From IMG/VR virus record IMGVR_UViG_3300022602_000036, positions 64,001-128,000 of that record: a stretch of DNA of 64,000 bases; one strand, 5' to 3'. Source of the DNA: a virus. The position numbers and the translations under genes were made by a program. The notes under the pieces are model-generated. The model was not told the DNA's origin and ran no database searches. It saw nothing but the letters and a program-made list of their open reading frames with translations. Shown here piece by piece: positions 1,083 to 56,037 of the stretch; the first letter of the stretch is position 1, and every line of letters starts with the position of its first letter.

Positions 1083-1703
1083 ATGTCAAATTTAGTCCCA
1101 ATGGTAGTAGAACGTACAAGTCAAGGCGAACGTGCCTATGACATTTATTCACGTCTACTTAAAGATCGTATCGTGATGTTAGATACTGATGTTAATGAAC
1201 ATACAGCCAGTTCAATCGTAGCACAGATGTTATACCTAGAAGCAGAAAATTCAGAAGCAGACATCTTATTCTATATCAACAGTCCAGGTGGCAGTGTAAC
1301 TGCTGGCTTGGCTATCTATGATACTATGCAGTTTATCCGTCCAGATGTGCGTACTATTGTTCTTGGGCAGGCATGTAGTATGGGTAGTTTCCTTGCTCAA
1401 GCAGGTCATCCAGGCAAGCGTTTTGTCTTACCAGAAGCACGTACAATGATCCATCGTGTTAGTTCAGGTACTCCTGGCACACGTGGTAGTGTACACGTAC
1501 AAGATCTACAGTTTGAAGATGCTAAACGTAGTTTTGAAGAAAGTGTGCGCATTAACAAACGTCTAACTGAACTCTATGTCAAACATAATACGCAAGGTAA
1601 GACCTACGAAGAATTGTTTGACACTATGAAGTTTGATACATTCTTATCAGCAGAAGAAGCAGTGGCCTATGGGCTTGCTGACGAGGTGATTACAAAAAGA
1701 TAA
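1083..1703 (+). CDS. clpP: ATP-dependent Clp protease proteolytic subunit
   Basis: [23 protein letters not shown] and YINSPGG; catalytic Ser (GQACSMG), His (MIHR), Asp (FDTFL). Confidence 0.97.
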
Positions 1704-2875
1704 TGTTTTTTCACATTAGCAAAACTGCACAGACTAATTTTAAACATAACTATCAAACTGATCATTTTGTTATAAATTTAGATGATGGGTGGACACAGGT
1801 ACAAGACTACCACGGTGATCTTGTATGGTACAAGGGATATTTAGACAACGCAGATCTAAGTCATTTTGCTGTAAGAATCAGTGAAGAAATATCTCCCACC
1901 CATAGCGGCAATTTTTGTATTATCAAAGTCACTGACAGTGGCCTGCTGATAAGAACTGATAATCTCAGAAGTTTTCCAATTTGGTATGACTATGATCTTG
2001 GATTAACAAATCTGAGAGAAATAGGCAAGTTGCAGTACACTGATGGAATAGTTGGTCTTACCAATAACCTAGAATTAATCCATACTGCATTTGACCCAAT
2101 TGGCTCAATTGACGATTCGCCTGTGTCATTTGATCAGGCAGTTGATCAAATTGACCTTATACTGAAATCAAAAGTTCAACAGTTTATTGAATACAATAGA
2201 CTGCCTTTGCGTGTATTTTTAAGTGGTGGCGTGGATACCGCTCTGCTGTTTTCATATATAAAAAACTACACTGACGACTACCATATAGTTACAAATGGGT
2301 ATATAGAACACGATTATTTTTATCTTAAAAATCACGGGCATTTGAGTAGATTTTGGGCATATAACCAAATTCACTATTGGGCAGAAAATTGTGTGTTGGC
2401 CAGCGGAGCTCCTGGTGATGAATTTACTGCCAGAAATCCTGTAACAGTTGATCAGCTATTGCAGGCCCACGGCTCTTCATTTGTCAAAGTAATGTCTGAG
2501 GAAAGATTTAAAAATAGTCTTAATTATGATTTTTTTAAACGTAGTTACATAGAAAAATTATCCAACACACCCGCACAATCTGCAACACTAGCCGAAGCTA
2601 TAAAACAGTGTTGCGAATACAATGCCAATGACTGGCAACACTGGCATTTAGGAAAAACATTAACTTGGACTCCGTTCAGAGATATGAATATGTTTAAGTT
2701 AGTGGCCAGACTGCCCTTAGAAGATCTCAAACACCAACTAATGGATAGTAGTATTCAAATTGAATTAATACGTAGAAATAGTCCAGAACTGTTGTCTGTA
2801 CTTTCATCTCAAAAAAATGCCCTAAATTACATGGAAAATGTAGTTGGCTATCTACAAAAAATCAAAGACTTATAA
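1703..2875 (+). CDS. asparagine-synthetase-like N-type ATP pyrophosphatase
   Basis: PP-loop FLSGGVDT and SGAPGDE motif; degenerate N-terminal domain lacking Cys2. Confidence 0.65.
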   Translation: MFFHISKTAQTNFKHNYQTDHFVINLDDGWTQVQDYHGDLVWYKGYLDNADLSHFAVRISEEISPTHSGNFCIIKVTDSGLLIRTDNLRSFPIWYDYDLGLTNLREIGKLQYTDGIVGLTNNLELIHTAFDPIGSIDDSPVSFDQAVDQIDLILKSKVQQFIEYNRLPLRVFLSGGVDTALLFSYIKNYTDDYHIVTNGYIEHDYFYLKNHGHLSRFWAYNQIHYWAENCVLASGAPGDEFTARNPVTVDQLLQAHGSSFVKVMSEERFKNSLNYDFFKRSYIEKLSNTPAQSATLAEAIKQCCEYNANDWQHWHLGKTLTWTPFRDMNMFKLVARLPLEDLKHQLMDSSIQIELIRRNSPELLSVLSSQKNALNYMENVVGYLQKIKDL

Positions 2876-2909
2876 GTCACTGATATTTTCCCTTTTCTGC
2901 TGATTTTGG

Positions 2910-2938
2910 TTGACTTTTTGGTTAAGTGACTGTATAAT
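2910..2938 (+). promoter_or_regulatory. sigma70-type early promoter
   Basis: TTGACT-N17-TATAAT. Confidence 0.85.
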
Positions 2939-2969
2939 ATACACATATTAACAATAAGGAACTAGACAA

Positions 2970-3245: not shown

Positions 3246-3258
3246 GATTAGATTTTGG

Positions 3259-3287
3259 TTGACTTTTTGGTTAAAAGAATGTATAAT
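3259..3287 (+). promoter_or_regulatory. sigma70-type early promoter
   Basis: TTGACT-N17-TATAAT, near-duplicate of 2910-2938. Confidence 0.85.
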
Positions 3288-3841: not shown

Positions 3842-3847
3842 TTTTGG

Positions 3848-3876
3848 TTGACAATCAAATCAAAAGGTGCTATAAT
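3848..3876 (+). promoter_or_regulatory. sigma70-type early promoter
   Basis: TTGACA-N17-TATAAT, ATG 6 nt downstream. Confidence 0.85.
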
Positions 3877-5269: not shown

Positions 5270-5587
5270 ATGTCTAGAACACGTAGACGTAAGCGTGGCG
5301 ACCACACTGATCTAGCTTGGCAAACTAGAGAAATGATCAAAGTCCCAGGCAGATTAATTTGGGTGCCAATGGACCCAAAAACCAAGCAGTATAAACGAGT
5401 AGTAAACAAGTATCACAGTGATGCAGGCACACATAAGTTTAACAACTGTCCACAAGGATGGTGGGTTAACATGGTAATGCAAAGACCACATCGCCGTGAT
5501 GCTAAAAGAAAAATCCAAAAATGGTTGTTGGATCCAGAGTATGAAGTTATACTAAATGCTAAGGAACCACTTCCATATTGGGATTAA
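5270..5587 (+). CDS. basic hypothetical protein
   Basis: MSRTRRRKR..., SD GAGGAG. Confidence 0.8.
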   Translation: MSRTRRRKRGDHTDLAWQTREMIKVPGRLIWVPMDPKTKQYKRVVNKYHSDAGTHKFNNCPQGWWVNMVMQRPHRRDAKRKIQKWLLDPEYEVILNAKEPLPYWD

Positions 5588-5769
5588 AGAATTGTTGTAT
5601 GAAGCGAGTCCAAAAACGGACAAGACACGGGTTCGACTCCCGTCGCCTCCACCAAAGCATTTTTGAAAGAGAGTTTTTCGTTGGGGGTGCCATGGTATCG
5701 ATTGACGGCTTAGTAGGCAAGTGGACAACACAGTAGGCGATGACTGTAAATCAAGCAAAATCCGTAAAT

Positions 5770-5856
5770 GCAAAAGCATCTACACTTGGTACTGTAAAAG
5801 TATCTATGGGCCGCGGTTTCCGCTTTGCTCGTGGTACAGAAGCAGTAGCTGCCTAA
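5770..5856 (+). other. tmRNA tag reading frame AKASTLGTVKVSMGRGFRFARGTEAVAA*
   Basis: resume codon GCA after TAAAT; C-terminal AVAA; GCTG/CAGC hairpin around the stop. Confidence 0.85.
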
Positions 5857-5901
5857 GAAACAGCAACCACGGGGCAGTTATGCCTTGTTACCCAAAATAA
5901 C

Positions 5902-5923
5902 CAAACCCGCTTCGGCGGGTTTG
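5902..5923 (+). terminator. hairpin/terminator closing tmRNA gene
   Basis: CAAACCCGC-TTCG-GCGGGTTTG. Confidence 0.75.
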
Positions 5924-5940
5924 CTACCTCTAAAAAGAGG

Positions 5941-5969
5941 TTGACAACAATACCAAATGATACTATAAT
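5941..5969 (+). promoter_or_regulatory. sigma70-type early promoter
   Basis: TTGACA-N17-TATAAT. Confidence 0.85.
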
Positions 5970-6036: not shown

Positions 6037-7335
6037 ATGTCACAAGCAACATCTTGGGTTAATCACTTGGCTGCTAACCCTGACCCAAAATATCCTAATC
6101 AAGGATACCCAGAAGTAATTGCTCAACGTTTTGGTAAAGATTTGGACCAAATACTTGGACCAGTATCCCAACGACGACCATATGACCAAATTAGTCAAAC
6201 AGAAGTAGAAAGCAGACTTGAATTAGTTGACGAAAAACTATTCCTTGCTAATATGCGTGGGGGCAAACAGCAACTTCTACAAACATTTTATGATTTGTTA
6301 GAGCACTTAGAAGATACTAAAGCATTATGGGGTATTGATATTCCTTTGATGAATATCATGCCAATGGAAGGCGTTGAACGCCACGCTGTAGAAAAGTTAT
6401 GGATTAACTATCGTTCACAGCGTACATTATATGCACGTCACATTGTTCAGATTGTTTTTAAATTTGATCCATGGAGTGTGTTTAATGGCATTGGGCGCAT
6501 GACTAAAGATTTAAAACGACTGTTTATCAATGATGCCCAACACCGTACTATTGCTTGTATGATTTTTGGTATTAGATATATGTCTGTACAATATCGCATC
6601 AGTGACGATGAAAACGTAGACATTGATCAGTTCTGTGCTTGTAATGTAGATAACCTACCGTCAGAAGCATACGATAACTATCGCAACCGTAAAGAACGTT
6701 GTGATGCTTATATCCAGGCTGATCGTCCACCGATCCGTGAAGATAAGTTTATGTGGGATATCGCACAATGGGCTCAACGTTGGGCTGTTAATATTTGTCG
6801 TGTAGGGGATCCTGTAGCTAACGGTGCAAGAGGTATTAGCCACATGGCAGATTTGTATAAATCTGCACGCATGGGATTTGACGTAATGGACGCTGCGGCA
6901 GCAGTGCTAGTTAAAGTTTACCCAAATGATCCAATGAAGTCAGCAAACTTAGTTGGACTATGCGAGTTATTGAAACAACAAGAACCCGAGTGGTTAGATG
7001 TAGACTACCAAGGTCCAAATAATTCAATCCTAAATCCTAAACTAGAGGATCTAGCTGAGATAATTGGAAAACGTTTTGGTAATGTAAACAAAGGTCAAAA
7101 TTCTGGTACATATCACGACCAATGTAAGCAAGCAATTAACAATTGGTATAAGGAAGCGTTTAATACTTTAAGTAACCCAAGTGGTATTGCACCTGAGGTA
7201 AAAGTTGCACACGCTACATATCACGTATATGATTCTTACAGTACCAAATATAAACTTACTGTGCCTAAAACAGAAAAAGGTGAGACATACAAAGTATTGT
7301 TATCATTCACAGAAGGATACAAAAAATGGATGTAG
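6037..7335 (+). CDS. ParB/Srx-superfamily (DGQHR-like) domain protein
   Basis: LWINYRSQR...FKFD...FINDAQHR...F..CN pattern resembles ParB-N/DGQHR-type domains; SD AAGGAG. Confidence 0.6.
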   Translation: MSQATSWVNHLAANPDPKYPNQGYPEVIAQRFGKDLDQILGPVSQRRPYDQISQTEVESRLELVDEKLFLANMRGGKQQLLQTFYDLLEHLEDTKALWGIDIPLMNIMPMEGVERHAVEKLWINYRSQRTLYARHIVQIVFKFDPWSVFNGIGRMTKDLKRLFINDAQHRTIACMIFGIRYMSVQYRISDDENVDIDQFCACNVDNLPSEAYDNYRNRKERCDAYIQADRPPIREDKFMWDIAQWAQRWAVNICRVGDPVANGARGISHMADLYKSARMGFDVMDAAAAVLVKVYPNDPMKSANLVGLCELLKQQEPEWLDVDYQGPNNSILNPKLEDLAEIIGKRFGNVNKGQNSGTYHDQCKQAINNWYKEAFNTLSNPSGIAPEVKVAHATYHVYDSYSTKYKLTVPKTEKGETYKVLLSFTEGYKKWM

Positions 7336-7757
7336 AACTAATTAACCAAAAGATTATTGAAGTAGAAAATAATCCATATCCGGATATGGATGAAGCAACT
7401 TATCTTAATAAAGATATTTGGTTTAAGGTAATTACAGGTAAAATGGATCTTAAAATGGTACAATGTATCTACTGGAGTATGCAACCGGAGTACGATGCAA
7501 CTCCGGAAGAGTTGTACAATATTAGTCCTGATTATCATAATGGTTTTAAGTTTTGTTATGGCCGCGGTAAGAATAGAGTAACTAGTGATGATATATTCTT
7601 ACCTAGTCCAGACCATGTGATTCCGCAAAAACACAACGGTCCGTCTACTATAGACAATCTTAAAATTGTTCCAAAGAAATATAATATTTGGAAACGAGAT
7701 ATGCTTAAAGAGGAATGGAATGACTTTAAAGTATGGATGGATAATCATTTAGAGTAG
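7326..7757 (+). CDS. HNH endonuclease-like protein
   Basis: SPDHVIPQKHNG....DNL......YN..K matches HNH core. Confidence 0.75.
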   Translation: MDVELINQKIIEVENNPYPDMDEATYLNKDIWFKVITGKMDLKMVQCIYWSMQPEYDATPEELYNISPDYHNGFKFCYGRGKNRVTSDDIFLPSPDHVIPQKHNGPSTIDNLKIVPKKYNIWKRDMLKEEWNDFKVWMDNHLE

Positions 7758-7873: not shown

Positions 7874-9795
<1,922 letters not shown>

Positions 9796-12426: not shown

Positions 12427-15400
12427 ATGGCAAGACAAGCAATTAAACAATACATATTTGTACCAGGCAACTCAGGGGTTGGCTATGTGCAGATACCTGG
12501 CAACTATTCAAATGGTCAGGTCATAGCGATCTTAGATGCTACAGCACAGACATTCCTTTACAACTTTGCTGATGCAACTTTACAGGGTGTGATTACTTGG
12601 ACACAAGGTCCAAACAGTAACTTCCCAACTAGTATTGATGGTGTAACTACTATTACTTTAAACCTTAATACTACACAATATCCTAGTACTGATAAATTAG
12701 CCGTTTACGTTGAAGCTCCATATCAAGTAGATCGCCCATTTGCTCGTGATGCAGTTGAACGTTTACGTGTAGCTAACCCACAGTCACTAATTGACGCTGA
12801 CTTTGAGTACGGCTTACAAAACACTAAATGGCAAAGTCTATTTACTAACAATGATAACCCAAGTATCTATGAAGTTCCAGGTTCAGACGTTTATGCTAAC
12901 ACAATTTCATACATTAGTTTCTTAGGTAACAGCCTAACATCAGGTGCGGTGGCAGCTGGTTCAAGTAACGTACAGATTATTTCAAACGGCTTTTCACAAG
13001 CAGGTCCAGGTAACAACCAACCTAACTGGACACAAAATGACTTTGCACTATTATTAAACAGTGACCCTGTGGGCAAACCAACACTGACCACATACTTAAC
13101 AACCAACGTAGCTTCGCAGAACCAACGTGGTCTAACAGTGGTTAGCTCAACTGGATTTAATCCAGGTGATAACGTTGTATTGATTTATGCTAATGCACAA
13201 GGTGTTACAGCAACTACATCAACAACTAGTAGCTTGACAGCTGGTCAAACAGCGTTAGCAGTAGCTTCAGGTACACCTATTGTCAACGGTAGTATGATTG
13301 CTGTTAACACTGGTAACATACAATATCCAGTAGAATTGATGGTAGTTACAGCAGGTGGCGGCACAAGTTCGCTAACAGTGGTGCGTAACAGATGGAACAC
13401 TAACTCAGCCAACATTGCTATTGCTTCAGGCGCAGGTATTAGTGTGGTTGGTCAAGCAGAAATGGCCAACGTGGTCAGCGTGCCAAACTCAACAACTATT
13501 AACGTTAACCGTGGCTACCAAAATACATCACCACAAGACAGTATGTACGCTAATACTATTATTACCAAAGCCTACTGGGACGCAGGTGGAGTAAGTGGTA
13601 CCAACGTTGAAATTGTACAGATGACAACAATTGGTACAGCACAGGCTAACATTGCGCAGTTTACACGTGGTGCGATGGGCACAACTCCAATAGCACAAGC
13701 AGGTGCAGGCAGTTTAGTTTTACGTTTATCAGGTATATTCACAGCTGGTAATACTAGTGTTCCATTGGTGGCTATGAACTTAAAAGGTCATAGTTTCAAT
13801 AAATTCTCAGCTATTAGCACACAAAACCACTATACTCCTGTAACAGAAGGACAATATCAAGTCAGTGATGTGTATACTAACTATCTAGACTATGTACCTA
13901 AGAACCCACCAAATACAGCAATTGGTTATCAAGTTAACCGTTGGGACACTTATATTCGTTATGCAGGCTTCTACGGTACAGCTAGCTTGCCACAACTTTC
14001 ATTTACCACAGATGGTGCTAACCCAAGTACAATTACAGCTACTAGTGCTTATGCACATGGTCTATCACCAGGTACACCAATCTTAGCTAACATAGCCGCT
14101 TCAGGCGGTACAGTATTTGGTTTTGGTCCAGCGGTGATTCAGACTATTCCAAGTGCAACCACGTTTACATTTGTGGCCAGAGGTACTGTTACGGGACCTG
14201 TTACAGGTGCTTGTTATGTACGTCCAAACTCATTCTTCACACACCGTGCGGCAGACGGTGGGGTTAACCTAGGTACTGGTACACCACACCATGGTGCGGC
14301 AGCAGCTAGACAGACTAAGAAATATTTCCGTTACCAATCTGGTAAAGGTATTATGTGGACATCAGGTACACTGTTAGGCAGTAACTTTGACATTACCAGC
14401 ATCTCTGCTACAGGTACAGGCGTTGGTAACGTTATTAACATTACCACAGACACAGAACATCAACTACAAATTGGTGCTAATGTTTTAGTGCAACAAATCA
14501 ACACTCTAGGCTATAATGGCTACTATCTAGTACAACAGGTTACTGGATTTAATAGCTTCCAATGTAACGTAACCACACCTTTAGGTAGTACTACTCCGGT
14601 AGTGGGTAACCAACCTAAAATAGCTACAGTTACCTGGGCAGGTGCGAGTGTACGTGCTGGTTTGTTTGATGATCAAAACGGCGTGTACTGGGAAAACAAC
14701 GGAGTAACAATCAGTGTAGTCCTACGTGCAGCTACATTCTATATGACAGGCACAGTGTCAGTTGAGGTTGCTACTAACTTGTGTGCAGGTGACGGTACTT
14801 GCTTGTTTACACAACAGTTTGTTGCAGGTGATAAAATTATCCTACGCGGTATGACACACACTGTAACATCAGTTATTGACGACAACAACCTAACAATTAG
14901 TCCAGTATGGCGCGGCTTAACTAACCAAGTGCGTATTAAACCAAGTAAAGTTATTGAACAACGTTATCCACAAAAATATTGGAACCTTGATCGTCTAGAC
15001 GGCACAGGTCCAAGTGGTTACTTGTTAGATGGCACTAAGATGCAGATGTTGATGATTCAGTACACATGGTACGGTGCTGGTTTCATTGACTTTGGTGTTC
15101 GTGGCCCACGTGGTGATTATATTTTCTGCCATAGAATTATGAACAACAACTTTAACTATCAAGCATATATGCGTTCAGGTAACTTACCGGCACGTTATCA
15201 AGCGATTAATGATACACCATATCAAATCTTGTTAGGTAACAGTGCTACCTATGGTGCTAACTATAGTGGCATTACATCAAGTGATACGACATTCTATATA
15301 CAAGATGCTACACACTTCCCAACACCAACACCAACGCAACCAGTGTGGGTATTGATTGATAACGAAATATTAAAATGTACAGGTATTACCTACGGTAACA

Positions 15401-16305
15401 TTGTTTACTCACCAACTACTTACAGTAACGTACAACCAGCTACAGTAACAGGTGTGACACGTGCAGCTAGCTTTAACCTGTTCCAAGACGGTAAAAACAC
15501 TACATTCTCAGCAGGTAATGCTCAGCCACATAGTGCTAACGTTTCAGTACGTGTAATTAACAGTACATCAGCACCGAGCTTGAACCACTGGGGTAGTGCA
15601 GTTATCCTAGACGGCGGCTTTGACACTGACCGCGGTTACGCTTATACGTACTCAGTAGCTAACGTTGCGTTCCCAACAGGTAGTTCAGCAACATCTAGCA
15701 CTATTACAGCGTTTGCAATGCGTCTAGCACCAAGCGTAAGTAATCAAATTCCAGGTGACTTAGGTACACGTGATCTAGTTAATCGTGCGCAGTTGATTCT
15801 ACAAAACATGATTATTAACTTCTCTGGTAACAACGTCAGCCAAACAACTGGTGCACGTTACCTAGTTGAAGGTATTCTAAATCCAAATAATATCAGTACT
15901 ACCAGCACAACTTGGAGTTACTTATACAACCAGGCATTTAACGCACAGAACAATCCATCAAGTGCTATTCAACCAAGCTACACACAGGTGGCTTCAGGTA
16001 ATATCTTAGGCGCAGCTCAATACACTGGTTCATTGAGTTTCAATGGTTACAGTTACGCTAGTGGTGGTACAAGTTGGGCCACAGGTGGTGAACGTTTGTT
16101 TGCGATTCCAGTTAACTATACCAACTCAGGTCAGCTAGACTTGAGTCAAGTTAAACAGATTGGTAACAGTGGTATTCCAGGATTTAACATCTATCCAGAC
16201 GGTCCAGAGTTACTAGCTATTAACGTTACTGCTCTAGTACCAACAGCAGCTGGTGTTAACGTTACAGGTGAAATTCAAGTTCAGTGGAACGAATCACAAG
16301 CATAA
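12427..16305 (+). CDS. large virion structural protein (1292 aa)
   Basis: T/G/N-rich beta repeats; SLIDADFEYGLQ and RQTKKYFRYQSGKG blocks. Confidence 0.75.
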   Translation: MARQAIKQYIFVPGNSGVGYVQIPGNYSNGQVIAILDATAQTFLYNFADATLQGVITWTQGPNSNFPTSIDGVTTITLNLNTTQYPSTDKLAVYVEAPYQVDRPFARDAVERLRVANPQSLIDADFEYGLQNTKWQSLFTNNDNPSIYEVPGSDVYANTISYISFLGNSLTSGAVAAGSSNVQIISNGFSQAGPGNNQPNWTQNDFALLLNSDPVGKPTLTTYLTTNVASQNQRGLTVVSSTGFNPGDNVVLIYANAQGVTATTSTTSSLTAGQTALAVASGTPIVNGSMIAVNTGNIQYPVELMVVTAGGGTSSLTVVRNRWNTNSANIAIASGAGISVVGQAEMANVVSVPNSTTINVNRGYQNTSPQDSMYANTIITKAYWDAGGVSGTNVEIVQMTTIGTAQANIAQFTRGAMGTTPIAQAGAGSLVLRLSGIFTAGNTSVPLVAMNLKGHSFNKFSAISTQNHYTPVTEGQYQVSDVYTNYLDYVPKNPPNTAIGYQVNRWDTYIRYAGFYGTASLPQLSFTTDGANPSTITATSAYAHGLSPGTPILANIAASGGTVFGFGPAVIQTIPSATTFTFVARGTVTGPVTGACYVRPNSFFTHRAADGGVNLGTGTPHHGAAAARQTKKYFRYQSGKGIMWTSGTLLGSNFDITSISATGTGVGNVINITTDTEHQLQIGANVLVQQINTLGYNGYYLVQQVTGFNSFQCNVTTPLGSTTPVVGNQPKIATVTWAGASVRAGLFDDQNGVYWENNGVTISVVLRAATFYMTGTVSVEVATNLCAGDGTCLFTQQFVAGDKIILRGMTHTVTSVIDDNNLTISPVWRGLTNQVRIKPSKVIEQRYPQKYWNLDRLDGTGPSGYLLDGTKMQMLMIQYTWYGAGFIDFGVRGPRGDYIFCHRIMNNNFNYQAYMRSGNLPARYQAINDTPYQILLGNSATYGANYSGITSSDTTFYIQDATHFPTPTPTQPVWVLIDNEILKCTGITYGNIVYSPTTYSNVQPATVTGVTRAASFNLFQDGKNTTFSAGNAQPHSANVSVRVINSTSAPSLNHWGSAVILDGGFDTDRGYAYTYSVANVAFPTGSSATSSTITAFAMRLAPSVSNQIPGDLGTRDLVNRAQLILQNMIINFSGNNVSQTTGARYLVEGILNPNNISTTSTTWSYLYNQAFNAQNNPSSAIQPSYTQVASGNILGAAQYTGSLSFNGYSYASGGTSWATGGERLFAIPVNYTNSGQLDLSQVKQIGNSGIPGFNIYPDGPELLAINVTALVPTAAGVNVTGEIQVQWNESQA

Positions 16306-27141: not shown

Positions 27142-27316
27142 ACTAACTATTCGCGTCACAAATCTTGACAAGATCAACAGCATTGCCAATTGGTGCAAGG
27201 CCAATTTAGACCATCACGAATGGGATATGACTCCTATACATATATTCAAACCAGACTATAAATTCCACTTTGAATGTGAGCAAACTCGCTTACAAGTAAT
27301 ACTTCAACACCTATAA
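27128..27316 (+). CDS. hypothetical protein
   Basis: 62 aa. Confidence 0.6.
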   Translation: MSKSKLTIRVTNLDKINSIANWCKANLDHHEWDMTPIHIFKPDYKFHFECEQTRLQVILQHL

Positions 27317-27321
27317 ACCAC

Positions 27322-27350
27322 TTGACAATTTAACCAAAAGATGCTATAAT
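27322..27350 (+). promoter_or_regulatory. sigma70-type promoter
   Basis: TTGACA-N17-TATAAT. Confidence 0.85.
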
Positions 27351-27383
27351 TATACATATAATAACAATTTAGGCATAGATTAT

Positions 27384-27686
27384 ATGGAAATTTTAAAAGC
27401 ATTTTTAACGGTTTACTGTATTATATCAGTTACGTTTACTACCTTTTTCCTAATTAATTTATTTAGAAATATTCGCAAAGAACTTGACATTGCCAAAGGT
27501 GTAGACACTGTTAAGAAAACTATGAAGTTAGTCTATGTAGAAGAAGTATGCGGTATGTTTCATATGTATGATATTGCCACCCATACATTTATCTGTCAAG
27601 CATACACTGAAGAAGAATTGTGGACTACGGCAAAAACTAAATTTCCAGACATGAAAGTAGTTAGTTTAGAAAAGGACAGCAAATGA
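27384..27686 (+). CDS. membrane-anchored hypothetical protein
   Basis: N-terminal hydrophobic helix. Confidence 0.75.
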   Translation: MEILKAFLTVYCIISVTFTTFFLINLFRNIRKELDIAKGVDTVKKTMKLVYVEEVCGMFHMYDIATHTFICQAYTEEELWTTAKTKFPDMKVVSLEKDSK

Positions 27687-28096
27687 CCATGCACATGTTA
27701 CCGCCTATGTATTCAACAACAGGCAAGAAAAAAGGTAAACAGAAATTCCGTACAGCAGAACAGGCTAACAAAGCTCGTCGTAACGCAGAATCGTGGCAAC
27801 AATTATTGGAGAAATATGATGCTAAAGTGGTGGTGGACAAATCTAAGTCCAACAGAAAAAATACTAGTAAAAGTGTGGTTACTAGTGGGAGTGATTGGCG
27901 TAGCCGTGTTGACCCTAGCCGCCTTACTGATCATATACCAAGTCGTGACACAGGTGTCGCTGTAGCCGCTCGCCCAGCAGACAAAGTCTACACAGGTGAT
28001 GCTATGATTGGTATTGGACAACTACATAAGTCAAACGGTATTCCTGTATTCCGTCAAGAAGATGCTGTCGATGTTAGTAAAATGAGAAGAGGATAA
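27683..28096 (+). CDS. hypothetical protein (YTG...IG..HKSN..P motif of T4-like phages)
   Basis: VYTGDAMIGIGQLHKSNGIPVF. Confidence 0.8.
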   Translation: MTMHMLPPMYSTTGKKKGKQKFRTAEQANKARRNAESWQQLLEKYDAKVVVDKSKSNRKNTSKSVVTSGSDWRSRVDPSRLTDHIPSRDTGVAVAARPADKVYTGDAMIGIGQLHKSNGIPVFRQEDAVDVSKMRRG

Positions 28097-28097
28097 T

Positions 28098-28774: not shown

Positions 28775-29051
28775 TGAAAGTCAATGGTATTGGAATGATT
28801 GGAAAGACTACCAATACGCAGTTAAAAAAGACCTTAACGTCGAGTATGAACTTTGGGAAAATACACCTAAAAATAACACTGTTATCTTTAATGCTGGCAC
28901 AGATGACGAAATGCTTAAAATTACTCCTGATGGTTTTTATGTTCGTGGAGTAAAGGTAGAACAAGGCCCAGAGGAAGCAGAAGCAGTATACAAAGCGTTT
29001 AAAGAGTTTATGACTTGGGCTATTATCAGCAGGCCCGAAGAAGAGCAATAA
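28767..29051 (+). CDS. hypothetical protein
   Basis: EMLKITPDGFYVRGV..Q...EAE.VY.AF; SD GGGGAG favours 28767. Confidence 0.7.
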   Translation: MGDESQWYWNDWKDYQYAVKKDLNVEYELWENTPKNNTVIFNAGTDDEMLKITPDGFYVRGVKVEQGPEEAEAVYKAFKEFMTWAIISRPEEEQ

Positions 29052-29076
29052 ATAGTATATTAAAGGAAAGGATCAA

Positions 29077-29292
29077 TTGGCAAAAGAAGACGTTATAAAA
29101 CTATCAGGAACCGTAGAAGAAGTCTTAGGTAACAGTATGTTCCGTGTGAAATTAGAAAACAATCACATTGTTACCGCATATATTGGAGGTAAACTCCGTA
29201 TGCACACAATTAAGATTATCATGGGTGACGTAGTTGACGTTGAAATGACGCCATATGATTTAACCAAAGCCCGTATTACTTACAGACGATAA
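29077..29292 (+). CDS. infA: translation initiation factor IF-1
   Basis: MAKEDVI...[14 protein letters not shown]...A...GK.R...I....[18 protein letters not shown]. Confidence 0.97.
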
Positions 29293-29414
29293 GCGTCCAG
29301 CACCAATTTACCTTTAAGCCACATTGGCTGTGCTGTGCAAAAACAAGGAAAGTTCACAACTAGGGGTCCTTGGTAGCCTTGTTGACGACTGGACATAGAT
29401 ATTTATGGAAAATT

Positions 29415-29960
29415 ATGTATAACTTTATTAAATGGACATTAAACGAAGGCAAGGAGCCTAAAACACTTACCCAAACTCCACTGCCTTATGATCGTGGTGC
29501 TCTAGGTAAAAGTCTAAGCAAGGCCACATTAGACTATCACTATGGTAGCCTATACAAAGGCTATGTTGATCGCTACAACAAGGGCGAAGGTGATGCAGAC
29601 TTCAACGAAGCAGGCGCTTTCTTACATGACTTATACTTCACACAATTCCGTGCGCCAAAAAGCTCAAATCTACCCGTAGGTAAAAGTCTAGAGTTAATCA
29701 ATGAACATTTTACAAGTTTTGATAAATTCAAAGAAGCTTTTGAAAAAGAAGCTATGAAGATACAGGGTTCAGGGTGGATCTATCTTTCATACCGTGGCGA
29801 GATTAAAACAATTAAAAATCACGAAGTTAGACGAGATATCGCACTGTTAGTTGACTGGTGGGAGCATGCATGGGCTCTTGACTATAAAGCAGATAAAAAA
29901 GGCTACTTAACTAATCAATGGAAAATCATTGATTGGGACATTATTAATCAAAGGATCTAA
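29415..29960 (+). CDS. Fe/Mn superoxide dismutase-like protein
   Basis: LPY...L, YHY, FLH, QGSGW, DWWEHA; start 29415 inferred. Confidence 0.9.
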   Translation: MYNFIKWTLNEGKEPKTLTQTPLPYDRGALGKSLSKATLDYHYGSLYKGYVDRYNKGEGDADFNEAGAFLHDLYFTQFRAPKSSNLPVGKSLELINEHFTSFDKFKEAFEKEAMKIQGSGWIYLSYRGEIKTIKNHEVRRDIALLVDWWEHAWALDYKADKKGYLTNQWKIIDWDIINQRI

Positions 29961-30719
29961 ATGCGAACTCCTCTTGTACTAGTTGGTACACGATACAACA
30001 TCTTACCTTTATTAGAAATAGCTGAAGCAACTAATTACGAAGTAATTGGAATTTTAGATCGTTTTTATGTAGGACAGAAATTTGAAGGTATAGATGTTAT
30101 AGGATCTGATCTAGATCTACTAGACAAAGAAAATCAAACCATACAGGATCTTATTAGCACAGCTGAATTTTTTGTCTGTACCTATTTTCCAGGTTATACC
30201 AATACCGATAATCCCAACGAAAACACATTCTTATTAAGATTGCAACGCATTGATTTAGTTAAGCGTGCTGGATGTCAGTTGGCGAATCTAATACACCCCA
30301 AAGCAGATATCAGCAAATATGCCACTGTTGGTAAAAATACGCTAGCACTGTTAAACTCGTATGTTGAGCCTAGATCCACCGTTGAGGATTTTTGTACCCT
30401 TATGCAAGGAGTTGGTATTGGGCACAACAGTATTGTAGGGGAAAATTGTTCATTCTCTGGTGATGGTGGAGTCGCAGGCAGTGTGACCATGGGCAAAAAT
30501 GTCTACGTAGGTGTTAACGTTCGTATATTAAATACCATGGAAAAGAATGTCACAGTAGGTGACAATGTTATTATTGGCCCAGGACTAATAATTATGAAAG
30601 ACATACCTGCAGATACTATTGTGTATCCAAATGGTAAAATGGTTCCTAACTGTGATTTTGATCCAAAAAAATACGAAGGGAACGGAATATTCCCTTCGTA
30701 CCAGCGACTAACTTCTTAA
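29961..30719 (+). CDS. hexapeptide-repeat sugar acetyltransferase (NeuD/PglD-like)
   Basis: Rossmann-like N-terminus, NLIHPKA.IS, left-handed beta-helix repeats with IGH. Confidence 0.85.
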   Translation: MRTPLVLVGTRYNILPLLEIAEATNYEVIGILDRFYVGQKFEGIDVIGSDLDLLDKENQTIQDLISTAEFFVCTYFPGYTNTDNPNENTFLLRLQRIDLVKRAGCQLANLIHPKADISKYATVGKNTLALLNSYVEPRSTVEDFCTLMQGVGIGHNSIVGENCSFSGDGGVAGSVTMGKNVYVGVNVRILNTMEKNVTVGDNVIIGPGLIIMKDIPADTIVYPNGKMVPNCDFDPKKYEGNGIFPSYQRLTS

Positions 30720-30721: not shown

Positions 30722-31768
30722 TTACATCACTTCAATATCAGCAGTGGCAATAGGGAATAGATCAACTCTATGCTTGCGTTCTTGATTGTATTCGTCTTGT
30801 GCAAATGGTAGGTATTCACCTGCTAGTTTATCATAATCAAATTGTAAACGTAGACCTACTCTGTCAGGTAAACGTCCCTTTGCAGGTTCAATTAGTCTAC
30901 GATGTAAGGTAATTGAATTATCAAATATCATAAGGTCACGATCACCTTTGTACCAATGATCATACATGTACTCTGGAACAAAAATACCTTTTTTAATAGT
31001 TTCAAATATCTTTGTGCTTTCTTCTCTAGACATGCCCTCAATATAGTCAAGCGTGGTGATGCCTAAGTGAATACCTTTTACCCCACCAGGGCTAGTAATA
31101 ACCAACGGTACTTTCATATCTGGCTCAGGGCATTGGTTTTCTTTATAAAATGCTTCTTGATCTGGTACTACTTCTGGGTGAACTCCTTTTTCGTGATAGT
31201 TATGTACTACTACCATTTCATCTAGTTCACTGCGGAAACTTTCACTAAGTGATTCATAATAGTCAGTGGTTGTACAAAACCCTGTAGCAGATCCTACGAA
31301 GTTTTCCCATCCCATCAAAGACACTCCAGGAGCAAAACTAACATCTGAACAGGCATTGCTGTGCCAATTCAACTCACCATCTCCAAAGATGCCAATAGAT
31401 TGTCCACGACGATTTTTCTTAGGTGTTACGCGAACTAGTTGCATGTGCTTGTCAATTAACCAACGGCGAGCATTTTGAACTGATTCCATTTCTTCTGCAT
31501 TGAGCTCATTGTTGAATATTAATTCTTTCAATGGCTTTCCATATTTTAAATATAGATTCACTGGACGCGGAAATCTTGGCGTGCCCCATTTTAACATTAG
31601 TTCATTATAACGTGGATAGTCAAGAGTATTACCGCGAATAATAGTAACTAATCCCTGAAGATGTAAATTGCCAATTTCCATCCATTCTTCGTCAGAAATG
31701 GTATTTAAATCTACATCATCAATAAAATGGCCAAACCTTCCCAGGCCAGGAATTTTAGTAATTTTCAT
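30722..31768 (-). CDS. TauD/TfdA-family Fe(II)/2OG dioxygenase
   Basis: WHSN..., H.W...D..IFDN..TLHRR; SD GAGGA. Confidence 0.85.
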   Translation of the reverse strand: MKITKIPGLGRFGHFIDDVDLNTISDEEWMEIGNLHLQGLVTIIRGNTLDYPRYNELMLKWGTPRFPRPVNLYLKYGKPLKELIFNNELNAEEMESVQNARRWLIDKHMQLVRVTPKKNRRGQSIGIFGDGELNWHSNACSDVSFAPGVSLMGWENFVGSATGFCTTTDYYESLSESFRSELDEMVVVHNYHEKGVHPEVVPDQEAFYKENQCPEPDMKVPLVITSPGGVKGIHLGITTLDYIEGMSREESTKIFETIKKGIFVPEYMYDHWYKGDRDLMIFDNSITLHRRLIEPAKGRLPDRVGLRLQFDYDKLAGEYLPFAQDEYNQERKHRVDLFPIATADIEVM

Positions 31769-31914
31769 AAATTTTCCTCAAATAAATTTTAATTAGATTT
31801 TATTGCTAGTGAGAAATCACACACGGAAGGCGTTCTAATTTAACAAATTAGTAAAAGGATTATTATCCCAGGCGTCTTAGTTTTCCGACGTCGATGAATA
31901 TCGGCGCTGCATAA

Positions 31915-32517
31915 TTATTTATGTTGTTTATAAACGCCAGCTAAATTATACATAGGTTCTGTGCCTAAGTTAAGCATAGCATAGTCATGTACACCTTCGT
32001 TTAGGCAATATGCATGACCCATTTTAGGTTCAAAGTATCCGCGGTTCTCAACAGCAAAATACCTTTCAGCAACATAATTCAAAGGAATCCAAAATATATT
32101 AAATCCTGCATTGATAGAATCTGTAGGCATGTGATATCTATCTTCAATCCTGGTGTGATTGTCAAAGAATCCCAAAGGATTCATTTTAATAATGCGTAGC
32201 CCCAGGGGAGTAATACCTAATTTTTCAATTGTTTCTTTAAAAATTACAGTACTACTATCCCACTCAACAGTACAGGGATCTTGGTCAAAACTAAAACTAC
32301 CATTATGTGAATAAATTAATTTATACTCCATATTACCAATGCTGTTTTCTTTAGGACGAGTAAATACTGATAACTCAATAGTCTGACAGAGTTGATATAA
32401 CATACTGGTTGTATCAGCATCAATGTCTGCTATAGGGCGCATGAAATCATTTTCAACTAATGATTGATCTATTTCAGATAGCTTAGAAAAGAAATTATAA
32501 GTAGCAAGGCTAGGCAT
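31915..32517 (-). CDS. degenerate Asp/Asn-beta-hydroxylase-like (DSBH) protein
   Basis: RIIKMNP.G...H, WIPL, G.AY.LN....AM.N.G.E pattern; metal ligands incomplete. Confidence 0.5.
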   Translation of the reverse strand: MPSLATYNFFSKLSEIDQSLVENDFMRPIADIDADTTSMLYQLCQTIELSVFTRPKENSIGNMEYKLIYSHNGSFSFDQDPCTVEWDSSTVIFKETIEKLGITPLGLRIIKMNPLGFFDNHTRIEDRYHMPTDSINAGFNIFWIPLNYVAERYFAVENRGYFEPKMGHAYCLNEGVHDYAMLNLGTEPMYNLAGVYKQHK

Positions 32518-32574
32518 ACTTGATATTTATTCTAATATATGCTATTATAATATAAATATCTTAAAGGACCTAAT

Positions 32575-32907
32575 ATGGACTCATTTGTAACTGTAAAACC
32601 TGGTGCTATTGCTAAAGTTAAAGAACTCATAGCAGAAGAAAACAATCCTAATCTCAAATTGCGTATGTTTGTTAGCGGTGGTGGATGCAGTGGATTCCAA
32701 TATGGTTTTACTTTTGAAGAAGAAACCAATGACGATGATTGGAGTTTTGACTTTGATGGTGTTACACTAGTAATAGACAGCATGAGCAGTCAATATCTGC
32801 AAGGCGCTGAAGTAGACTATACAGAAAGTCTACACGGTAGTCAATTTAGTATTAAAAATCCAAATGCGCAAACTACCTGTGGATGTGGTAGTAGTTTTTC
32901 AATTTAA
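32575..32907 (+). CDS. erpA: Fe-S cluster insertion protein (ErpA/IscA/HesB family)
   Basis: [11 protein letters not shown]...[13 protein letters not shown]; perfect TATAAATA upstream. Confidence 0.92.
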
Positions 32908-32916
32908 AGGGTTTCA

Positions 32917-33780
32917 ATGAGAATAGCACTTTGTTTTAGCGGGCAGAACCGCACAGGACATGTCACAGCAGAAAATATCAAACGTTATGTAGGCGACCTA
33001 CTACCCGACTGTGATGTATTTGCACACTTTTGGGACAGCGAAACCCGCGGTACCAACTTTGCTAACCGTGAAGGTGCGGCCAGTACAGGTAATGATTGGC
33101 ATGATGCACAACTGTCCAGCAAAGACAAATTTGTCAAATTCTACAGTGAATGGATGCCACGTACTATCATGGTAGAAGAGTATGACCTACAGCCTAGCAA
33201 AAAACTTTGGGGTGGTCGTCGTTGGGATCCTGTAGCAGGCAAATATCAAGTCAGCATGTGGCGCAGTGTTTACGAAGCCAACAAGCTAAAAATGGACTAC
33301 GCTCAAAAGAATCAGATTGTGTACGACTACGCAGTGCGATTACGTAGCGACATTGTATTTGATTCAAGCAAAAGTCTAGCAGAAGACCTAAAAGAAATTC
33401 CTAATAATCAAACCATGTTACACGGAGATCATTATCATGTTTGGGATTATGATGGACATACCAGAGTAGAAGATATCTTTTGGTTAGGATCTAGTTCTTT
33501 AATGGATCAAGTATCAACTTATTGTTTTGCTCATTCTAACACTGTAGCTAATATAGACGACCCTACACAACCTGGATATGAAGATTGGCAATGGCATAGC
33601 TGTGCGTGGATTACCAAAACCCTAGGCTATAAAATCAACGCATTAACCAACAACATGATGCGTATCTACACAGAACAGGATATAACTTCTGGCACTGATC
33701 CTTTAAACCCAGGATGGGGTCGTGCACCACTCTACGGTGCTTACAACGATAAAAACATAGAGAAAATCCGCCGTTGGTAA
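32917..33780 (+). CDS. glycosyltransferase-like protein
   Basis: MRIALCFSGQ.R...DVF.H.W...YDY.VR.RSD pattern. Confidence 0.55.
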   Translation: MRIALCFSGQNRTGHVTAENIKRYVGDLLPDCDVFAHFWDSETRGTNFANREGAASTGNDWHDAQLSSKDKFVKFYSEWMPRTIMVEEYDLQPSKKLWGGRRWDPVAGKYQVSMWRSVYEANKLKMDYAQKNQIVYDYAVRLRSDIVFDSSKSLAEDLKEIPNNQTMLHGDHYHVWDYDGHTRVEDIFWLGSSSLMDQVSTYCFAHSNTVANIDDPTQPGYEDWQWHSCAWITKTLGYKINALTNNMMRIYTEQDITSGTDPLNPGWGRAPLYGAYNDKNIEKIRRW

Positions 33781-41577: not shown

Positions 41578-41931
41578 ATGAGTGTATATGACGCAAAGAA
41601 AATTACCAAGTTTACTGCAATAAAAAATTATGTTGTTGTAACTGACATGAATTTCAAAGAAAAAATATCGCACGGTGGAATCATTATTCCACACAGTGAC
41701 GGTAAACTAGAAGGTGTTCACCCACGCTGGGGTAAGGTCTATGCTATTGGCCCTAACCAAAAAGATGTCAAGGTTGGCCAATATGTTCTAGTCAAACACG
41801 GTCGTTGGACCAGAGGTATATTAATTGAAGATACAGAAGGTGAGAAAACCATCCGCCGTATTGACGATGCAGACATTCTAATGGTCAGCGATGAACCTAT
41901 GCAAGACGAAACAATTGGTCGCGGCTTGTAA
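41578..41931 (+). CDS. second, divergent GroES-like co-chaperonin
   Basis: GGIIIP...G..PRWGKVYAIGP...DVKVGQ.VLV. Confidence 0.7.
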   Translation: MSVYDAKKITKFTAIKNYVVVTDMNFKEKISHGGIIIPHSDGKLEGVHPRWGKVYAIGPNQKDVKVGQYVLVKHGRWTRGILIEDTEGEKTIRRIDDADILMVSDEPMQDETIGRGL

Positions 41932-52817: not shown

Positions 52818-52846
52818 TTGACAAAACCTTAATTTTATTGTAATAT
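52818..52846 (+). promoter_or_regulatory. sigma70-type promoter for dnaJ
   Basis: TTGACA-N17-TAATAT, ATG 6 nt downstream. Confidence 0.7.
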
Positions 52847-52852
52847 AATAAT

Positions 52853-53710
52853 ATGGCAAACGCATATGAAATATTAGGAGTGCCTAAAGGGGCTTCTGAT
52901 TCAGACATTAAAAAGGCTTACCGCAGGCTTGCGGGCCAACATCACCCTGACAAAGGTGGTGATACAGCCAAATTCCAAGAAATACAAAATGCTTATGAAA
53001 CCCTAAGCGATCCTCAAAAACGTGCTCAACATGATAATCCAAATCCATTTGGGCACGGATTCCAAGGGCATCCAGGTGGCAGTCATTTTGAATTCCACTT
53101 TGGTGGAGGTGGTCCAGAAGACATATTCCAACAGTTTTTTAACCAAGGATTTGGCGGACATAACCCATTTCAAAGACATCAACAACCCCGTCGTAATAAA
53201 GATCTACGTGTGCAATTGACTATTAGTCTAGCCAGCACCTTAGAACAACAAAAGAAAACAATCTCAGTACAGACTACCAAAGGCGATCGTTACAATGTAG
53301 ATGTTGATATCCCTAGAGGTATTAACAATGGCACTACTATCAAGTACACTCAATTGGGTGATAACATGTTTGATACCTTGACAAGAGGTGATTTATATGT
53401 TATAATTAACGTAGAAAATGACAGTCGCTTTGAGATACATGGTATCAACCTAGTAGCTAATTTGGAAATAAACAGCATAGAAGCTATGCTAGGTGTAGAT
53501 AAAATTGTCCAAGGCGTTGATGGAAAAGAGTACGCAGTTAAAATTCCACAAGGCTGTCAATACGGTACTAAATTTGGCCTACAAGGTCAAGGCTTATATC
53601 AAATGAACACACAACATCGTGGGGATTTGATTGTTAACGTTGTAGTTAAGACTCCAGTATTATCTGAACTACAATTAAACATGCTTAGAAACATTAACAT
53701 CATTCAATAA
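52853..53710 (+). CDS. dnaJ: DnaJ/CbpA-type J-domain chaperone (no Zn finger)
   Basis: YEILGV...[15 protein letters not shown]-rich linker, DnaJ_C. Confidence 0.92.
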
Positions 53711-53733
53711 ATATTTTTATATAGGACATAATC

Positions 53734-56037
53734 TTGGCTGACATGCAAAACAATCCTGAGATAGAACACATCATTAACACTGCCTGTGTTCTAGCCAAAG
53801 ACTACAAACATGAATATGTTACACTAGAACATCTATTAATTGCCTTAATAGAATCTAAAAACTTTAACAAGTTAGTCACTGACTATGGTGTTGATGTAGA
53901 AAATCTTCTACGCGACTTATATGATTATATTGGTCGTCAAACACATCTAGTCAACGAAATTAAACCAGATCTAACCCCAATGCGTACACACAGCCTAGAG
54001 CGTGTGTTTAATCGTGCATTTACACAGGTCTTGTTTAGTGCTCGTGATCAAATGGAACCTATTGATTTATTCTTGAGCATTAGTCAAGAACCTAATAGCC
54101 ATGCAGCATACTTTATGCTCAAATGGGGTATTAACCGCAAACAACTAATTGACTTTTTTGCAGAACAAAACAGCGATCGTTTTAATCGTGCTAAGAAAGT
54201 TGAAAGTACTAAGAAAGACTTTGCTGATAAGATTCTAGCAGAATACTGCACAGACTTAAACGCACAGGTCGTAGAAGGTAAGATTGATCCCGTAATTGGT
54301 CGTGCTTATGAATTAGAAGAAATTGCACAGGTTCTAGCACGTCGTAATAAATCCAATGTACTTATGATTGGTGATCCTGGTGTGGGCAAGACTGCTATTG
54401 CAGAAGGCCTAGCATATAAGATTGTCAATGGTGAAGTACCAGAATATTTAAAACCTTACACAGTATTCAACTTAGAAATTGGCAGTTTACTAGCTGGTAG
54501 TAAGTATCGTGGCGAGTTTGAAGAAAAACTCAAAGATGTACTACACGCCCTAGGTCAAAAAGGCAACTCAATCTTGTTTATTGATGAAGCACATCAAATG
54601 CAAGGTGCTGGGTCAGGTGGCTCTAGTCAAGTAGACTTTGCTAATATGCTTAAACCAGCATTGGCCAAGGGCAAGATTAAAGTTATTGCATCAACTACGT
54701 TTGAAGAGTATACTCAATCGTTTGAAAAAGATCGTGCGCTAATGCGCAGATTCTACAAACTAAATGTAGATGAACCTACGCCAGCTGTGGCCAAAGATAT
54801 CTTGTACGGATTAAGAACACACTTTGAAAAATTCCACGGCGGGGTTATCACAGATGATGCTATTGAAGCCGCAGTGGATCTAAGTGTACGTTATCAAACA
54901 GACAAACGTTTGCCAGACAAGGCCATTGATTTGATTGACATGAGTTCAGCTAAACTTAAGATTCAAAATCCAGACTTTGTAGTTACTAAACTAGACATTG
55001 TTGATACTATCAGCAAAGCCACTAAGATTCCTAAAGAGAATTTGTTAAGTGAAAAAGCCACAGAAAGTCTAGTTAACCTTGAAGCTACAATCAAGGACAA
55101 ACTATACGGCCAAGATAGTGCTGTAGATCAAGTATTAGAAAAGATCTATGTTGCCAAAGCTGGTATGAAATCACACAACAAGCCTGTAGGTAACTTCTTG
55201 TTCCTAGGACCAACTGGTACTGGTAAAACAGAACTATGTAAACTACTCAGCGAATCGTTGAGCATGAAACTCTTACGCTTTGATATGAGTGAATATCAAG
55301 AGAAGCATGCTATGGCTAAACTTATTGGTGCTCCCCCAGGCTATGTTGGCTATGAAGACGGCAATCTAGGTGGTGGCTTATTGATCAGTGAAATTGAACG
55401 TAACCCACATGCTATTATCTTGTTAGATGAAATTGAAAAAGCACACCCAGATATCAGTAACTTATTGTTACAGATCATGGATGAGGGCTACATTACAGGA
55501 TCTAACGGTAAGAAAGCAGATGCACGTCACTGTATCCTTATCCTTACTTCAAATCTAGGTGCTGCAGATGGTGAACAAAATGCTATTGGTTTTGGTAGAT
55601 CATTGCAAAAAGAAGGCACAGATGACGAAGCGGCTAAGAAGTTCTTTAAACCAGAATTCCGTAACAGACTTGATGCTGTAGTTAAGTTTGGTAAACTTGA
55701 TAAATTGGCTATGAAGAAAATTGTTGTCAAATTCTTAAATGAATTAAATGACCTACTAGAAGAAAAGAATATCAAAGTTCGTTCATCAGAAGCCCTAGTA
55801 GATCACTTAACAGAAGTTGGATTTGATCCTGCAATGGGCGCACGCCCGCTAGCACGTAAGATTAACGAACTTATCAAAGTACCGCTAAGTAAGAAAATCT
55901 TATTTGAGCACATAGAATCTGGTAGTGTAGTTACCGCTGATTACAGTGAAGATGTTGTTAAATTTATTGTAATTCCGCCTGCACTTGATCTATTAGAAAA
56001 CAAAACCGTTGACGAAAACGGCTACATTGTAGCATAA
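53734..56037 (+). CDS. clpA: ClpA-type AAA+ unfoldase
   Basis: N-domain [10 protein letters not shown]; Walker A GDPGVGKT and GPTGTGKT; IGF ClpP-docking loop; no ClpB middle domain. Confidence 0.93.

Follow-up and report, generated by a model that had tools for sequence, protein, structure and literature searches.

Clp protease and chaperone genes have been described in several jumbo phages. The Agrobacterium phage Atu_ph07 encodes ClpA (gp292) adjoining DnaJ (gp293), together with ClpX, ClpB, ClpP and ClpS, and its authors proposed aggregate clearance and host maintenance as the role of these proteins (PMC6102473). A transfer-messenger RNA (tmRNA), Clp genes, a GroES-like gene, Hsp20 and DnaJ were reported for the Sinorhizobium phage AP-J-162 (PMC11242549), ClpP and ClpS of jumbo phages were described by Iyer et al., and huge phages carry tmRNA and IF-1 (PMC7162821). 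The tmRNA of aquatic myophages was suggested by their authors to maintain the hijacked machinery or to tag proteins for degradation (PMC9004378). Here, a gene set of this kind is reported for a stretch of 64,000 nucleotides, hereafter the window, which covers positions 64001-128000 of the 149,159-bp IMG/VR record IMGVR_UViG_3300022602_000036 (estimated completeness of the record 42%). The window comes from a freshwater jumbo phage, uncultured and about 330-355 kb in size, of whose genome it forms the middle part.

The window encodes ClpP, a tmRNA, GroES and GroEL, IF-1, a second GroES-like protein and the adjacent DnaJ and ClpA (Table 1), all of which were found at or close to the positions where an earlier note on this DNA had placed them. 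In that note the genes had been read as a self-contained circuit, in which stalled ribosomes are freed by a phage tmRNA whose tag is matched to a phage protease. This interpretation was partly supported. We consider it rather probable that the genes represent a proteostasis-and-translation toolkit which is inherited within the phage lineage, is dispersed over the genome, still requires host partners and contains no dedicated tag/protease circuit.

A conserved gene set and its missing host partners

Relatives of the window's ClpA, with identities of 63-86%, were detected in 260 IMG/VR contigs and relatives of its ClpP in about 600; no near-identical cultured phages were obtained in the INPHARED search. 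Of these relatives, G002 (354 kb) and G003 (357 kb) are complete, G001 (355 kb) and G030 (329 kb) have direct terminal repeats, G030 being collinear with the record of the window, and G025-G028 (321-353 kb) are 92-99% complete. Adjacent Hsp20 and ClpS, ClpP, the permuted tmRNA, IF-1, the Cpn10-like gene and adjacent DnaJ and ClpA are shared by G001, G002, G003 and G030. ClpA, ClpP, ClpS and the permuted tmRNA were found together in every near-complete relative examined, which confirms the co-occurrence expected in the earlier note, whereas DnaK, GroES/EL and ClpX are variable. The conserved core would thus consist of ClpA with its adjacent J-protein, ClpP, ClpS with its adjacent Hsp20, the two-piece tmRNA, IF-1 and a gp31-like co-chaperonin, and DnaK, GroES/GroEL and ClpX would be optional, with gains, losses or replacements in individual sublineages. 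The components are spread over more than 90 kb amid unrelated phage genes, with virion structural genes, DNA ligase and the clamp loader lying between the modules. As judged by sequence, each module is a complete copy of a part of a cellular machine with intact catalytic residues. The comparison shows that uncultured freshwater jumbo phages of a very common family, represented by hundreds of IMG/VR contigs, stably inherit a full ClpAPS protease, the tmRNA and several chaperones.

The phage ClpA contains the Pfam domains Clp_N, AAA, AAA_lid_9, AAA_2 and D2-small. Its residues 7-736 were aligned with residues 3-734 of E. coli ClpA in one stretch, compared with two stretches in the case of ClpB and ClpC. 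Both Walker A/B pairs and the N-domain are present and the M-domain is absent. The pore loops KYRG at 257 and GYVG at 536 and the IGF loop at 618 were invariant in all 13 family genomes compared; the IGF loop occupies the position of IGL in the alignment with E. coli ClpA, as had been anticipated. The score of ClpA with the TIGR02639 equivalog, 822.7 bits, was under the cut-off of 993, yet this was the best-scoring family, and the score below the cut-off indicates a divergent, phage-resident lineage. The neighbouring DnaJ is class-B-like, as the zinc-finger (CXXCXGXG) region of class A bacterial DnaJ is absent; with TIGR02349 it reached 204 bits in two stretches, the cut-off being 377.

The Ser (CSMG), His (MIHR) and Asp (FDTF) residues of the phage ClpP were aligned with the triad of E. 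coli ClpP, so the triad is intact as claimed previously. The protein was aligned end to end with solved ClpP chains (residues 4-206) and keeps the N-terminal LVPMVVE axial-loop region. In the ring-ring handle region, behind the catalytic His, it has about 12 additional residues. The ClpP subfamily model NF001368 was matched with 251 bits (cut-off 249) and TIGR00493 with 238 bits, below its cut-off of 308.6. As regards a putative ClpA-ClpP complex, the IGF loop of ClpA and the conserved N-terminus of ClpP were observed. Two ClpP alleles, of 196 and 206 residues, were separated in the family at 100/100 support, and their distribution contradicts the ClpA tree. Near-identical ClpA proteins occur with either allele: the ClpAs of G003 and G004 are nearly identical and the ClpP alleles differ. 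The 206-residue allele is present in G000 and the 196-residue allele in its sisters G006 and G017. At the level of the sequences, this implies repeated replacement of ClpP alleles at one locus.

ClpS had been reported as missing, which holds for the window; in the record, however, the gene lies in a DnaK-Hsp20-ClpS cluster about 34 kb upstream of the window (record positions 27166-29962). ClpS exceeded the Pfam cut-off (Table 1) and stayed under the NCBIfam equivalog cut-offs. Among the pocket residues corresponding to E. coli N34, D35, D36 and H66, the Asn, the first Asp and the His are retained, the second Asp is replaced with Asn, and Tyr/Pro are replaced with Val/Thr. DnaK was found in only seven genomes among 24 close relatives (G000, G001, G006, G008, G009, G014, G030). 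Of the seven near-complete genomes, six had a ClpX score above the TIGR00382 cut-off, as did G005 and G008; ClpX was found neither in G003 nor in the complete clade-I genome G030. The gene order of ClpX-bearing relatives is ClpX, Hsp20, ClpS; in clade I, DnaK is positioned directly upstream of Hsp20-ClpS, i.e. in the ClpX slot of other sublineages. The cluster in the record is followed by the curli secretion genes CsgF and CsgG (record 31547-33032), which are also present in G003 and G030.

Several partners of the cellular systems were absent. SmpB was found in none of the eight genomes that are at least 92% complete, nor in the record or in the 23 relatives searched, although the control genomes scored. 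The extension of the SmpB search beyond the window, proposed earlier, thus gave no candidate, and the tmRNA would have to use the SmpB of the host. ClpX and SspB were not found in the 149-kb record, and the complete collinear relative G030 lacks ClpX and SmpB. The reported absence of ClpX, SspB and SmpB was accordingly valid for the whole record and, for ClpX and SmpB, also for G030, but it does not extend to the many other relatives that encode ClpX. In the genomes tested, the searches for GrpE, SspB, ArfA, ArfB and Aat gave no match. In the record, RF-1/ArfB was not found, nor was a second Hsp100, the Hsp100 search being limited to this record. With SmpB absent from all eight of the most complete genomes, a self-contained trans-translation system is refuted by the gene content. 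The appealing picture of an autonomous circuit is corrected as unsupported, and the core, optional and host-borrowed parts, foremost among the latter SmpB, are now separated.

With DnaK of Burkholderiales and Methylophilaceae, Polynucleobacter, Limnohabitans and Methylophilus included, the phage DnaK shows 70-76% identity, and the short tags of related phages resemble the Polynucleobacter tag ANDERFALAA. A betaproteobacterial host is therefore likely on the evidence of these similarities. No two-piece tmRNA was detected in the five betaproteobacterial genomes nearest by DnaK, which indicates that the phage tmRNA is not a recent copy from those genera.

The tmRNA tag and its relation to the protease

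The tmRNA gene matched RF04321 (tmRNA_permuted) across the full model with 112.8 bits, the gathering score being 47. Its acceptor strands, GGGGGTG and CGCCTCC-A-CCA, provide the G3:U70 pair and an encoded CCA, and the resume codon is GCA. The tag determined by ARAGORN is AKASTLGTVKVSMGRGFRFARGTEAVAA, 28 residues in length. Long tags of relatives consist of 28-33 residues with the core K-V-x-x-G-[RK]-G-F-R-F. Besides the window, this core was present in L093, L095, L099-L103, L144, L228, G001 and G030, and its peptide sequence is shared by two ClpA clades. In comparison with host tags, the ANDE N-terminal part is dropped and the A-[VL]-A-A end is kept. The insertions and deletions among the long tags are multiples of three and preserve the frame, and the codons of the invariant F-R-F core differ by synonymous third-position changes (CGC/CGT, TTC/TTT), which indicates that the frame is a real coding sequence. 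Other relatives encode host-like tags of 10 residues (ANDEQFALAA, ANDSQFALAA, ANDNTFALAA, ANDSVYALAA, ANDSQFLMVA) or two other types of long tag, AKTSTFKFFEVPASVARAANAERFELAA and ANANTFKYMQVDVALNDDAFALAA.

In the proposed mechanism, the tmRNA would be charged by the host AlaRS and delivered by the SmpB and EF-Tu of the host, and it would supply additional rescue capacity for cut or stop-less mRNAs during infection. As the tag keeps a non-polar, Ala-rich C-terminus, the tagged chains could probably be degraded by whichever Clp unfoldase is at hand, including host ClpXP. The phage ClpA, ClpP and ClpS may together form an autonomous ClpAPS machine. The ClpS-bound ClpAP would probably be engaged in the turnover of N-degron and of damaged or aggregated proteins, with Hsp20 and DnaJ (and DnaK, where present), and not in dedicated degradation of ssrA-tagged chains.

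The comparison of relatives gave no support for a matched tag/protease pair. ClpA, ClpP and ClpS were all present with each of the tag classes, the host-like 10-residue tags as well as the long ones. The co-occurrence of the long-tag tmRNA with clpA and clpP, which the earlier note had put forward as a check, was found; however, clpA and clpP occur equally with 10-residue tags. On the ClpA tree, long tags were placed in two clades and short tags in two others, so one or two events suffice to account for the distribution. In 13 genomes, 35 ClpA columns segregated by tag class, which is no excess over the 32 and 36 columns of two control partitions. ClpP alleles were exchanged independently of both ClpA and the tag, and the long-tag clade II also encodes ClpX. 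According to Dougan 2002, in the account given in PMC6102473, ClpS redirects E. coli ClpAP, which then acts on N-degron substrates and aggregates in place of ssrA substrates. In the phage family ClpS is a core gene, and a ClpS with this activity would block the recognition of the ssrA tag by ClpA.

These results bear on the alternative in which a private long tag is preferred by the phage ClpA and fed to the phage ClpP, and stalled ribosomes are rescued independently of the host. We regard it as unlikely. The retention of the Clp set in relatives with host-like tags, the exchange of ClpP alleles, the lack of co-variation between ClpA and the tag class, the presence of ClpX in clade II and of ClpS throughout, and the missing SmpB all contradict it, although the spacing of clpP and ssrA (2-5 kb in most close relatives), the absence of ClpX from G030, the long tag without the ANDE part but with the A-[VL]-A-A end, the coding constraint on its core and the perfect sigma-70-type promoters near ClpA, ClpP and the tmRNA unit would be in agreement with such a pair.

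Some of the observations weigh against a dispersed, host-dependent toolkit. ClpA is the sole phage-encoded partner of ClpP in the sublineage of the window, and the conserved, translated core of the long tag leaves room for a functional link between the tag and ClpA. The genes clpP, ssrA and groES/EL are all located inside 9 kb of one another. The inhibition of ssrA degradation by ClpS is known from E. coli evidence only, and the substrate pocket of the phage ClpS reads NDN-V-T-T in place of NDD-Y-T-P of E. coli. With regard to the host, one-piece tmRNAs were found in two of the five DnaK-nearest betaproteobacterial genomes, whereas the tmRNA of the phage consists of two pieces.

The conservation of the core also raises the alternative that the main role of the long tag is other than that of a degron, and that the basic-aromatic G-[RK]-G-F-R-F serves as a handle for another factor, such as a chaperone (phage DnaK, for instance) or an adaptor, or leads to another fate. 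The two ClpA clades with this core share its peptide sequence, the codon changes being synonymous. Among the 24 close relatives, each genome in which DnaK was found had the long-core tag, and DnaK was absent from five short-tag genomes that are at least 92% complete, and in clade I DnaK lies beside Hsp20-ClpS, where other clades have ClpX. On the other hand, one or two ancestral events explain the same pattern, and the tags retain the non-polar C-terminus of the Clp type. The link between DnaK and the long tag, perfect in the close relatives, was rejected as it is broken by distant DnaK contigs with ANDEFALAA (G040) and ANANTFKYMQVDVALNDDAFALAA; G038 combines DnaK with a different long tag. 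A handle function is therefore held to be quite improbable. The search for long-tag-specific genes (G000 and G001 against G002 and G003) resulted in seven open reading frames (ORFs), corresponding to DnaK, a radical-SAM protein and small ORFs, with no convincing adaptor among them.

In E. coli, SspB binds to the A-N-D-E part of the tag. It is conceivable, but very doubtful in our judgement, that the long tag acts as a private address: by dropping ANDE and inserting the core as a handle, rescued chains might be directed to the phage ClpA or to DnaK/DnaJ. If this were true, the products of trans-translation would be re-addressed in a virus-specific manner, off the host ClpXP-SspB route.

Chaperonins, promoters and neighbouring genes

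GroES/EL genes are present in the clade of the window and in G003, and were not found in G001 or G002; together with DnaK, they are variable accessory genes in the family. The divergent Cpn10-like protein is encoded by a core gene, which is kept in G001 and G002, both without GroEL. Its top PHROG was phrog_931, 'head morphogenesis', ahead of 'GroES'. T4 gp31 acts on host GroEL. By analogy, the Cpn10-like protein is probably a co-chaperonin of the gp31 type, which would work with host GroEL in capsid folding. IF-1 and this second GroES-like protein belong to processes other than the circuit proposed earlier.

The same observations could be read as an aid to virion assembly, with the chaperonins, the J-protein and Clp folding and processing the structural proteome of a jumbo phage, ClpP acting as a head-maturation protease and the tmRNA being unrelated. 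The 'head morphogenesis' match of a Cpn10-like protein that is kept without GroEL, like T4 gp31 on host GroEL, fits such a role, as do the virion structural genes between the modules and, in the Pseudomonas phage PA5oct, on both sides of dnaJ-clpA. ClpP also matches PHROG families of head-maturation proteases; however, it is of the cellular type from end to end, passes the ClpP subfamily cut-off and reached only 82 bits with the ClpP-related head-maturation model (cut-off 120). The clpP gene is situated outside the structural module, in an operon with a sigma-70-type promoter and a DksA-like gene, and the presence of ClpS and of an IGF-bearing ClpA points to regulated cytoplasmic proteolysis. 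For the set as a whole, this explanation is improbable.

Eight perfect TTGACA-N17-TATAAT sites were found in the window, compared with 0.09 expected by chance (Table 1). Several of these promoters share the A-rich spacer CAAATCAAAAG[AG]TG. Their positions suggest that the toolkit genes would be expressed by the RNA polymerase of the host, probably early. The T4-type late promoter motif TATAAATA was rejected as an alternative signal: it was not enriched (3 sites compared with 7.3 expected), and none of the sites was near the toolkit genes. The TATAAATA sites at 32551, 39079 and 46818 (+) are all located 14-50 nt upstream of ORF starts.

The final base of the DksA-like gene (816-1082) abuts the start of clpP, and its product may modulate the host RNA polymerase. 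The start of a 390-residue ORF (1703-2875) overlaps the clpP stop. This ORF has no Pfam or PHROG match and resembles PP-loop ATPases of the Asn-synthase type in language-model features and predicted structure. It was rejected as a new ClpP partner, as only 7 of 80 relatives have it behind clpP, with 28-41% identity. The spacer between the tmRNA and groES (6037-7757) contains a 432-residue ORF without assigned function and a weak HNH-endonuclease-like ORF, differs strongly from one close relative to the next and may represent a mobile insertion. A gene for Fe/Mn superoxide dismutase (29370-29960) directly follows IF-1; G001, G002 and G003 have the same pair, and no match to the dismutase was obtained in G030. 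A gene for a B12-binding radical-SAM protein lies on the minus strand a short distance upstream of the window (record 61584-63119); the protein has a match in G001 and none in G002 or G003. ARAGORN detected 28 tRNA genes in the 149-kb record, and in the relatives a tRNA with CUA anticodon at 318225-318298 of G001 (labelled Pyl; a potential amber suppressor) and an odd tRNA-Ser(ACT) at 187316-187405 of G003.

Table 1. Positions of the described features; coordinates refer to the window unless the record or a relative is named.
Feature	Position	Strand	Basis or context
Perfect sigma-70-type promoter	150..178	+	ahead of orf138, DksA-like gene, clpP and orf390
DksA/TraR-type C4 zinc-finger protein	816..1082	+	PF01258 6.5e-11; phrog_54 (DksA-like)
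ClpP proteolytic subunit, 206-aa allele	1083..1703	+	PF00574 2e-64
Perfect sigma-70-type promoter	3848..3876	+	nearest upstream of small ORFs running into the tmRNA gene
Circularly permuted (two-piece) tmRNA gene	5562..5947	+	ARAGORN; Rfam tmRNA_permuted
tmRNA tag reading frame	5770..5856	+	28 codons and stop; conserved core KVSMGRGFRF
Perfect sigma-70-type promoter	5941	+	
GroES co-chaperonin	7874..8164	+	NF001527 127.5 bits (cut-off 120)
GroEL chaperonin	8176..9795	+	TIGR02348 820 bits (cut-off 582)
Perfect sigma-70-type promoter	24437	+	
Perfect sigma-70-type promoter	27322	+	
IF-1	29077..29292	+	PF01176 83.6 bits; TIGR00008 105.6 bits (cut-off 61.15)
Divergent Cpn10/GroES-like protein	41578..41931	+	Pfam Cpn10 3.7e-7 (weak)
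Perfect sigma-70-type promoter	52030	+	ahead of methyltransferase gene and dnaJ
J-domain co-chaperone (DnaJ)	52853..53710	+	J domain and C-terminal domain; adjoins clpA
Perfect sigma-70-type promoter	53378..53406	+	inside 3' part of dnaJ, ahead of clpA
ClpA-type double-ring AAA+ unfoldase	53734..56037	+	domains, E. coli ClpA alignment, pore and docking loops
Perfect sigma-70-type promoter	62005	-	
ClpS	record 29630-29962		adjoins Hsp20; PF02617 96 bits (cut-off 23)
Hsp20-ClpS locus of G001 with the DnaK/ClpX slot	12863-15443		
Hsp20-ClpS locus of G002 with the DnaK/ClpX slot	210476-213091		

Comparison with known systems

The T4-related jumbo phages Atu_ph07 and AP-J-162 carry comparable sets of Clp and chaperone genes, but their ClpA is only about 40% identical to that of the window. 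In contrast to these phages, the family of the window has no ClpB and its sublineage no ClpX, whereas a two-piece tmRNA with a long tag is present and some members encode full GroEL and DnaK. A similar gene order was observed in PA5oct (vB_PaeM_PA5oct, Arenbergviridae), where EST35_0290 to EST35_0298 comprise a GroES-like 'chaperonin', several genes, DnaJ and ClpA, arranged as in the window. The ClpA proteins of PA5oct and the window are 40.8% identical across 95% of the length. With its 287-kb genome, PA5oct is a Pseudomonas phage available in culture, whereas the phage of the window is uncultured and of freshwater origin.

The OM43 phage Melnitz and pelagimyophages resemble the record in having a permuted tmRNA without a phage SmpB and in having CsgF/CsgG, but their genomes are about 140-150 kb in size and no ClpAPS set was reported for them (PMC9004378). 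No glutamine riboswitch, such as their tmRNA has, was detected in the tmRNA of the window, and the long K-V-x-x-G-R-G-F-R-F tag is not described in that study (PMC9004378).

In comparison with bacteria, the tmRNA of the window has the G3:U70 pair and GCA resume codon of E. coli and Caulobacter and an A-V-A-A end as in Caulobacter, and the domain organisation and motifs of the phage ClpA and ClpP, and in part those of ClpS, are like those of their bacterial counterparts. Unlike the bacterial ClpXP/SspB and ClpAP/ClpS systems, the phage sublineage has no SmpB, SspB or ClpX of its own; the tag is about three times longer than bacterial tags and has a conserved internal core, and the components are scattered. 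Annotations of PA5oct, Atu_ph07 and AP-J-162 already include the dnaJ-clpA pair and comparable sets of Clp and chaperone genes. New here are the translated long-tag core conserved at the peptide level, the two freely recombining ClpP alleles, which differ in the handle region, and a locus at which DnaK has taken the place of ClpX, and these three findings are the leads that the comparison provides.

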